From assembly GCF_024298765.1 (NCBI RefSeq), contig NZ_CP101210.1: DNA of 64,000 bases; one strand, 5' to 3'. Under the pieces are notes generated by a model, which was given only the letters and a program-made list of their open reading frames with translations, did no database searches and was not told the DNA's origin. This stretch comes from Escherichia coli (lineage in GTDB: Bacteria; Pseudomonadota; Gammaproteobacteria; Enterobacterales; Enterobacteriaceae). A program made the translations under genes and the position numbers. Shown here one piece after another: positions 23,393 through 23,515 of the stretch; positions within the stretch are counted from its first letter, which is position 1; each line of letters opens with the position of its first letter.

Positions 23393-23515
23393 ACAGGGAT
23401 AAACCGAACTAGTTAAAGTTTTTATTATGTTCCCTGCATCAGCGGGGATAAACCGGACTTGTTATCATTTTTTAAGTTGTCGAACTTATGTTCCCCGCGT
23501 CAGCGGGGATAACCA
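23393..23515 (+). CRISPR. Degenerate mini CRISPR array (truncated repeat plus 2 diverged repeats; 20-nt and 32-nt spacers)
   Basis: Partial repeat ACAGGGATAAACCG (23393-23406); ATGTTCCCTGCATCAGCGGGGATAAACCG (23427-23455); ATGTTCCCCGCGTCAGCGGGGATAACCA (23488-23515). Confidence 0.65.

Follow-up and report, generated by a model that had tools for sequence, protein, structure and literature searches.

The small CRISPR array beside ygcE in Escherichia coli is best read, with a probability of roughly 85%, as a fixed three-repeat, two-spacer remnant, CRISPR2.2, which lies at the ygcE-proximal trailer end of the CRISPR-II locus and has been cut off from the active CRISPR2.3 array by a promoter-island block of the H-NS type. 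One observation weighs against reading it as a relic: the segment at 23267–23517, which contains the array, is far more conserved than either of its flanks, and a functionless relic should not be. The array was analyzed within a stretch of 64,000 nucleotides (the window; NCBI RefSeq assembly GCF_024298765.1, contig NZ_CP101210.1), whose orientation is reversed relative to K-12 coordinates. The features used below are:

21397–22068, plus strand: queE/ygcF, upstream of the CRISPR2.3 leader (leader2.3).
22069–22407, plus strand: AT-rich leader of CRISPR2.3, from the annotation of the identical strain 104 and of K-12.
22408–22925, plus strand: CRISPR2.3 array, 9 repeats and 8 spacers with 61-nt periodicity, a PGAP CRISPR feature in strain 104.
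22926–23377, unstranded: AT-rich non-coding block (the gap; 0.45 kb, 27% G+C) splitting the CRISPR-II locus.
23267–23517, unstranded: near-invariant block (the island), made of the last ~110 nt of the AT-rich gap and R1-S1-R2-S2-R3.
23378–23515, plus strand: mini-array, R1(29)-S1(20)-R2(29)-S2(32)-R3(28).
23378–23406, plus strand: R1, degenerate 29-nt repeat ATATTCCTTGTAAAAACAGGGATAAACCG, identical to the consensus at 18/29 positions.
23407–23426, plus strand: S1, 20-nt 'spacer', 15% G+C.
23427–23455, plus strand: R2, 5 substitutions (24/29), hairpin kept with one G-U pair and 5'-handle ATAAACCG intact.
23456–23487, plus strand: S2, 32-nt spacer, 28% G+C.
23488–23515, plus strand: R3, terminal repeat (23/29) with a degenerate 3' end, GGGGATAACCA.
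23530–23553, unstranded: G+C-rich hairpin GGCCGGGC-N8-GCCCGGCC between R3 and the ygcE stop codon, from sequence and fold.
23562–25040, minus strand: ygcE.
40010–48529, plus strand: complete type I-E cas operon (cas3, cse1, cse2, cas7, cas5, cas6e, cas1, cas2), from NCBIfam matches.
48626–49875, plus strand: CRISPR2.1, the cas-adjacent array of 21 repeats, directly after cas2.

Over 22926–23560, the window shows 100% identity to strain 104 (NZ_CP029164), against 97.6% for K-12 derivatives. Upstream of queE, at ~20335–21260, ygcG and the small gene yqcG are frameshifted pseudogenes according to RefSeq in the identical strain 104; both genes are intact in K-12.

This feature, in the ygcE-queE/ygcF intergenic region of the E. 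coli CRISPR-II locus, is CRISPR2.2 and is already published. It has been described in PMC4489801 and PMC3903273, with the nomenclature attributed to Diez-Villasenor et al. 2010. CRISPR2.2 and 2.3 have been placed 0.5 kb apart, or merged as CRISPR2.2-3, with leaders at 2.1 and 2.3 only (PMC3903273), and CRISPR2 has been described as split by a 0.5-kb AT-rich non-coding sequence (PMC2886076, PMC10910852). The mini-array matches these descriptions in its location between ygcE and ygcF/queE, on the ygcE side and ~0.5 kb from CRISPR2.3, and in its three type 2 (I-E) repeats and two invariable spacers; from the K-12 CRISPR2.2 it does not differ in substance, being 99.6% identical over 23340–23565. 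The original prediction, which was made from this sequence, had called the array 'CRISPR 2.1-like'. That label is mistaken: the name CRISPR2.1 belongs to the cas-adjacent array at 48626–49875, beside the cas-E operon and iap and equipped with leader2.1, whereas the mini-array lies 25 kb away from it. Among the annotated records examined, the NCBI annotation pipeline marks CRISPR2.3 and in none of them the mini-array.

The array itself was correctly located. The interval 23393–23515, reported with exact strings and coordinates and adjoining ygcE, starts with ACAGGGATAAACCG, followed by the 20-nt spacer at 23407–23426, R2 (ATGTTCCCTGCATCAGCGGGGATAAACCG, 23427–23455), the 32-nt spacer at 23456–23487 and R3 (ATGTTCCCCGCGTCAGCGGGGATAACCA, 23488–23515). 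A search of the window with the I-E repeat core, allowing up to 3 mismatches, returned 32 matches, R2 and R3 both among them, where 100 shuffles gave an expectation of 0. The repeat that had been described as truncated is indeed present, but it is a full-length, strongly degenerate 29-mer at 23378–23406; its 18/29 consensus match exceeds the best match in each of 500 shuffles of the gap (maximum 17). The start-to-start spacings of the repeats are 482, 49 and 61 nt, the last two running from R1 to R2, across the 20-nt spacer, and from R2 to R3. All three repeats are predicted to fold into the canonical 7-bp stem with a tetraloop in the same register, with energies of -7.9 (R1), -12.1 (R2) and -15.1 kcal/mol (R3) against -15.1 kcal/mol for the consensus. 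The 8-nt 5'-handle ATAAACCG is present in R1 and R2 and degenerate in R3 (ATAACCA). The stem of R1 carries 5 substitutions that preserve every pair, an outcome with p = 0.13 if only transitions are allowed (weak), falling to 0.02 for a 2:1 ratio of transitions to transversions and to 0.005 when any substitution is allowed.

Substitutions G1A and A2T are common to R1, R2 and R3, and C9T and G12A to R1 and R2, while S1 and the first 20 nt of S2 are identical at 12/20 positions in register (p about 0.02). From the four derived substitutions common to R1 and R2, together with the likeness of the two spacers, we infer that R1-S1 is probably a diverged and shortened duplicate of R2-S2 and not an independently acquired unit. 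The composition of S1 and S2 (15% and 28% G+C) is nearer to that of the gap (27%) than to the 50 ± 11% of the 28 spacers in the two large arrays. Judged as a functional I-E array, the small, inactive-looking mini-array has 29-nt I-E repeats with a stem-loop and cognate cas genes, but neither an adjacent leader homologous to the known E. coli leaders, which carry the promoter, nor spacer turnover.

Unsplit relatives of the locus point to its origin. In E. coli SF-166, leader2.3, a repeat, one spacer and GAGTTCCCCGCGTCAGCGGGGATAACCA precede the trailer, hairpin and ygcE that the window also has. In E. albertii NBRC 107761, the leader and three repeats with two spacers lead up to the same terminal repeat and trailer, and in E. 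whittamii Sa2BVA5 the leader is followed directly by the same terminal repeat; the one genome-collection scan made for other species recovered E. albertii and E. whittamii only. These three arrays have leader2.3, the terminal repeat ending in GGGGATAACCA and the trailer with its hairpin in common with the window. They differ from it in lacking the 0.45-kb block, R1, S1, R2 and S2, and in a terminal repeat that begins GAG or GGG, not ATG. The extra block of the window is thus the stretch from the last CRISPR2.3 repeat to the 5' end of R3, comprising the gap, R1, S1, R2 and S2. Because the three relatives are gapless, R3 and the trailer can be identified as the trailer-end repeat of an ancestral, single queE-leader-array-ygcE arrangement. 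Accordingly, the mini-array, originally proposed to be a second array, is better understood as a trailer end that became detached from a single CRISPR-II array, and not as an independent one. A single insertion of the AT-rich block would be the more parsimonious cause of the split, since two outgroup species are unsplit. The reverse history could also apply, in which SF-166, E. albertii and E. whittamii each lost the block by a repeat-mediated deletion of its own; the hybrid repeat is expected to be identical under either history. A separate rearrangement is seen in E. coli OkiPb01688 (1561–2650 of the examined region), where the start of the gap runs into an IS1 element with ygcU beside it. 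Neither ygcE nor the mini-array remains, the ygcE side of the locus having been removed by an IS-mediated deletion.

CRISPR2.3, on the other side of the gap, may bear traces of past acquisition. Its five leader-proximal repeats (22408–22680) are all of the variant form CCCCACGTCAGCGGGG, carrying G10A and C13T, which break one stem pair and lower the predicted stability to -9.7 kcal/mol from -15.1 kcal/mol. Copying of a mutated first repeat at each acquisition would explain these repeats, and would imply that several spacers were acquired after the mutation.

The gap that separates the two arrays measures ~0.45–0.47 kb and is AT-rich (27% G+C), in line with the ~470 bp of AT-rich DNA given in the original prediction; its further description as leader-like finds no support beyond composition. 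Smith-Waterman comparison scored 22 against leader2.3 (shuffles, 20.3 ± 3.2) and 20 against leader2.1 (shuffles, 16.7 ± 2.6). Consensus scans found no plus-strand promoter or terminator in the gap, the three promoter-like matches all facing the opposite direction, and no plus-strand boxA-like site is present in 22926–23377; a minus-strand boxA-like match at 23324–23335 is within chance expectation. No ORF longer than 31 aa lies within the gap. The best ORF of the conserved block, 31 aa from a GTG start (23317–23412), was rejected as a small protein: it has no obvious ribosome-binding site, and in one strain a frameshift disrupts it close to the end. Neither phages nor plasmids yielded a homologue of the gap, and a foreign origin of the gap or spacers was likewise rejected, as the only 'plasmid' matches were mis-filed chromosomes or matches to repeats. 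Rfam holds no relevant family for the mini-array and gap region. Nor does the gap look like a decayed stretch of array, there being no degenerate repeats in a 61-nt register. A sequence within it, TAGTTCTCCATGCCAG (23013–23028), resembles the 5' half of the repeat at 12/16 positions (15/29 over the full length); this likeness is borderline against shuffles and is gone in another haplotype.

Part of the gap coincides with a published feature of a different kind. Positions 22945–23290 correspond, at 96% identity via K-12, to promoter island 2901670_347 ygcE/queE (PMC3661553 Table 1); for this mapping, coordinates were shifted by an assumed +1976 between K-12 genome versions, a shift that also puts the neighbouring queE/ygcG island in its correct place. 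Promoter islands are AT-rich intervals in which predicted start points are densely packed; RNA polymerase and H-NS bind them, they yield little productive RNA, and they have been linked to horizontally acquired DNA (Shavkunov 2009, PMC2731890; Panyukov and Ozoline 2013, PMC3661553). This promoter island is confined to the variable part of the gap; the mini-array and the conserved 110 nt lie just past its 3' edge. Given this promoter-island character, transcription may begin locally in the gap at sites that escape simple consensus scans. The interval between ygcE and ygcF also contains HB_171, an sRNA predicted computationally in older work.

The distribution of the array across the species is that of a fixed element. 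The interval 22926–23560 is found at 94–100% identity, over at least 80% of its length, in 4123 of 5426 complete E. coli genomes, always in single copy and always on the chromosome. Carriers of the mini-array make up about 77% of the 5,426 complete genomes, and the whole block is absent in about 23%. The comparison of orthologous regions that the original prediction had proposed as a check therefore bears it out on this point: with about 4,100 copies among the 5,426, an absence of orthologous arrays from related genomes, which it had named as evidence to the contrary, is not what is observed. Spacers S1 and S2 are identical in nine diverse strains, taken at even steps down the identity ranking, and for S2 taken with its 3-nt flanks, 4045 of 4062 genomes reach an identity of at least 99%. 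The sole structural variant seen is the loss of R2+S2, exactly one 61-nt unit, in one O157:H7 genome (F8092B) and one O145 genome, and the exactness of this loss is a signature of repeat-repeat recombination. Spacer content is not strain-specific. Since the same spacers recur across ~4,000 genomes, the mini-array is not a site of spacer acquisition and takes up no spacers.

Conservation of the array stands in contrast to both of its flanks. The nine-strain alignment has 54 variable columns in 341 nt at 22926–23266 and 35 in 261 nt at 23500–23760, but only 3 in 233 nt, all singletons, at 23267–23499 (island versus flanks, Fisher's exact p = 2e-10). Pairwise diversity is 0.006 in the mini-array, 0.044 in the gap, 0.046 in the trailer and hairpin and 0.094 at third codon positions of ygcE. 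The same picture emerged when consensus queries of equal length were compared with all complete genomes: the island was at least 99% identical in 4001 of 4162 genomes, with 1 genome at 90–95% and 2 in all below 95%, whereas the adjacent gap segment reached at least 99% identity in 0 of 4158, with 843 at 90–95%. The comparison of gap and island is a fair one, because essentially the same genomes are involved. The 3' end of ygcE was at least 99% identical in 724 of 5371 genomes, with 502 at 90–95%, and the functional leader2.3 fell below 95% in 478 of 4562. Among the island matches listed, which were evenly spaced, about three quarters were 100% identical. The boundaries of the island are sharp: outside it, the trailer hairpin, the 3' end of ygcE and the remainder of the gap are highly polymorphic. 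The only common polymorphisms in the repeats and the island are those at 23500 and 23501 in the tetraloop of R3, and rare variants elsewhere follow no pattern. Near-invariance of 23267–23517 between two polymorphic flanks contradicts the proposal that the array is decaying, or at the least makes it doubtful; it reflects either purifying selection or a recent sweep with very short linked tracts. We did not find this contrast stated in the accessible literature, which notes 'invariable spacers' and a 'highly conserved' 0.5-kb sequence only, and most of that published 0.5 kb is highly polymorphic here.

Whether the mini-array could still give rise to RNA was considered from its surroundings. Leader2.3 contains a boxA-like sequence, GCTCTTTAACAT, at 22308–22319 with 1 mismatch, which suggests that the CRISPR2.3 transcript may read far downstream. 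A second, GTTCTTTAAAAA at 48537–48548 upstream of CRISPR2.1, has 2 mismatches and is within chance expectation. Both lie ~80–90 nt upstream of the first repeat of their own array and fit published Nus-factor antitermination. Stringer et al. 2020 (PMC7665894) showed that boxA mediates antitermination of CRISPR arrays in Salmonella Typhimurium and Vibrio cholerae. The CRISPR2.3 leader resembles the Salmonella CRISPR-I and CRISPR-II arrays in having a boxA-like element; the mini-array differs from them in having no boxA of its own, and antitermination at the E. coli locus would follow by analogy. Transcription of CRISPR-II is reported to be weak and H-NS-repressed (PMC5904413).

If the mini-array is transcribed, we infer that read-through from CRISPR2.3 is the most likely route and a promoter of its own the less likely one. 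Mini-array RNA would then arise as the H-NS-repressed, boxA-equipped CRISPR2.3 transcript is extended across the gap, perhaps protected from Rho, as in Salmonella and Vibrio, by boxA and Nus factors, and the transcript would stop at the hairpin at 23530–23553. Cutting by Cas6e would yield one canonical 61-nt crRNA with S2 and a 49-nt species with S1. Because R2 and R3 carry Cas6e hairpins, the ATAAACCG handle of R2 flanks S2 and the cas operon is intact, Cas6e could release both species, and the operon of the window could supply Cas6e and Cascade in trans. The hairpin is a likely transcript end for one or both of the convergent units. It has no U-run on the ygcE (minus) strand and only a weak TTCCTC on the plus strand. 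The polymorphisms in its arms, 23549 and 23552, both plus-strand C to T, would give G-U pairs in a plus-strand RNA but A-C mismatches in the ygcE mRNA, and a base private to the window, 23539, lies in its loop.

Neither predicted crRNA has a detectable target. No S2 protospacer was found in 50,697 phage records, 72,556 plasmid records or IMG/VR, and E. coli chromosomes hold no second S2 site beyond the locus. The single S2 match in IMG/VR (IMGVR_UViG_2531839665_000019, a 39.7-kb contig, 11650–12000) is the chromosomal ygcE-CRISPR2.2 region filed as viral; since the contig holds this chromosomal region, it is host DNA or a mis-delimited prophage and not a protospacer.

These results bear unequally on the explanations that compete with a fixed remnant. 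That the repeats look like CRISPR repeats by chance, or were created during assembly, has next to no probability: the poor match of R1 (18/29) is all that speaks for it, against a shuffle expectation of no matches and the recurrence of the same sequence in thousands of independently assembled genomes. An independent second array, decaying and transcribed from its own AT-rich leader at 22925–23392, is improbable. It would account for the composition of the upstream block (27% G+C), for the in vivo binding of RNA polymerase to the gap reported in the promoter-island papers (PMC2731890, PMC3661553) and for the conserved ~110 nt directly upstream of R1, as is usual for leader-proximal sequence. 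However, the similarity of the gap to leader2.3 and leader2.1 is within that of shuffles, the plus strand has neither a boxA nor a consensus promoter, and promoter islands are reported to be poorly productive. Spacer turnover is seen in no genome, the leader-proximal repeat R1 is the most degenerate of the three, the opposite of normal arrays, and R3 with the trailer belongs to the single ancestral array, while the low diversity of the island runs counter to ongoing decay.

A more serious, if still unlikely, alternative is that 23267–23517 is a functional element kept by selection, such as a pair of conserved crRNAs, a small RNA or the structured end of a transcript, with a role outside adaptive immunity, for instance in Cascade-guided or RNA-level regulation or in the insulation of convergent CRISPR-II and ygcE transcripts. 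It would explain why variable sites are confined to 3 singletons in 233 nt, with sharp edges, between flanks with 54 in 341 nt to the left and 35 in 261 nt to the right; why 4001 of 4162 genomes are at least 99% identical over the island and 0 of 4158 over the adjacent gap, the 3' end of ygcE being more diverse too; and why common repeat polymorphisms are limited to the R3 tetraloop and all R1 stem pairs survive 5 substitutions. Yet the pairing in R1 is weak evidence under the transitions-only model (p = 0.13), no Rfam family, convincing promoter or S2 target was found, the examined O157 and O145 genomes live without R2+S2, and ~23% of genomes do without the whole block. Conservation by itself names no function, and a localized sweep could also produce it. 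The narrower proposal that the mini-array is the core of a ~250-nt element under purifying selection across its carriers, for example a domesticated fixed-guide crRNA unit or another structured RNA outside adaptive immunity, is put forward from sequence comparison as a tentative idea, with the odds well against it.

Catalogued since 2010, CRISPR2.2 serves in CRISPR typing of E. coli and STEC, and the mini-array itself adds nothing new. If the constraint on it and on the 110 nt upstream is true, it would mean that E. coli keeps a fixed, non-adaptive CRISPR unit for another purpose, and this would bear on the purpose of the largely silent E. coli type I-E system.
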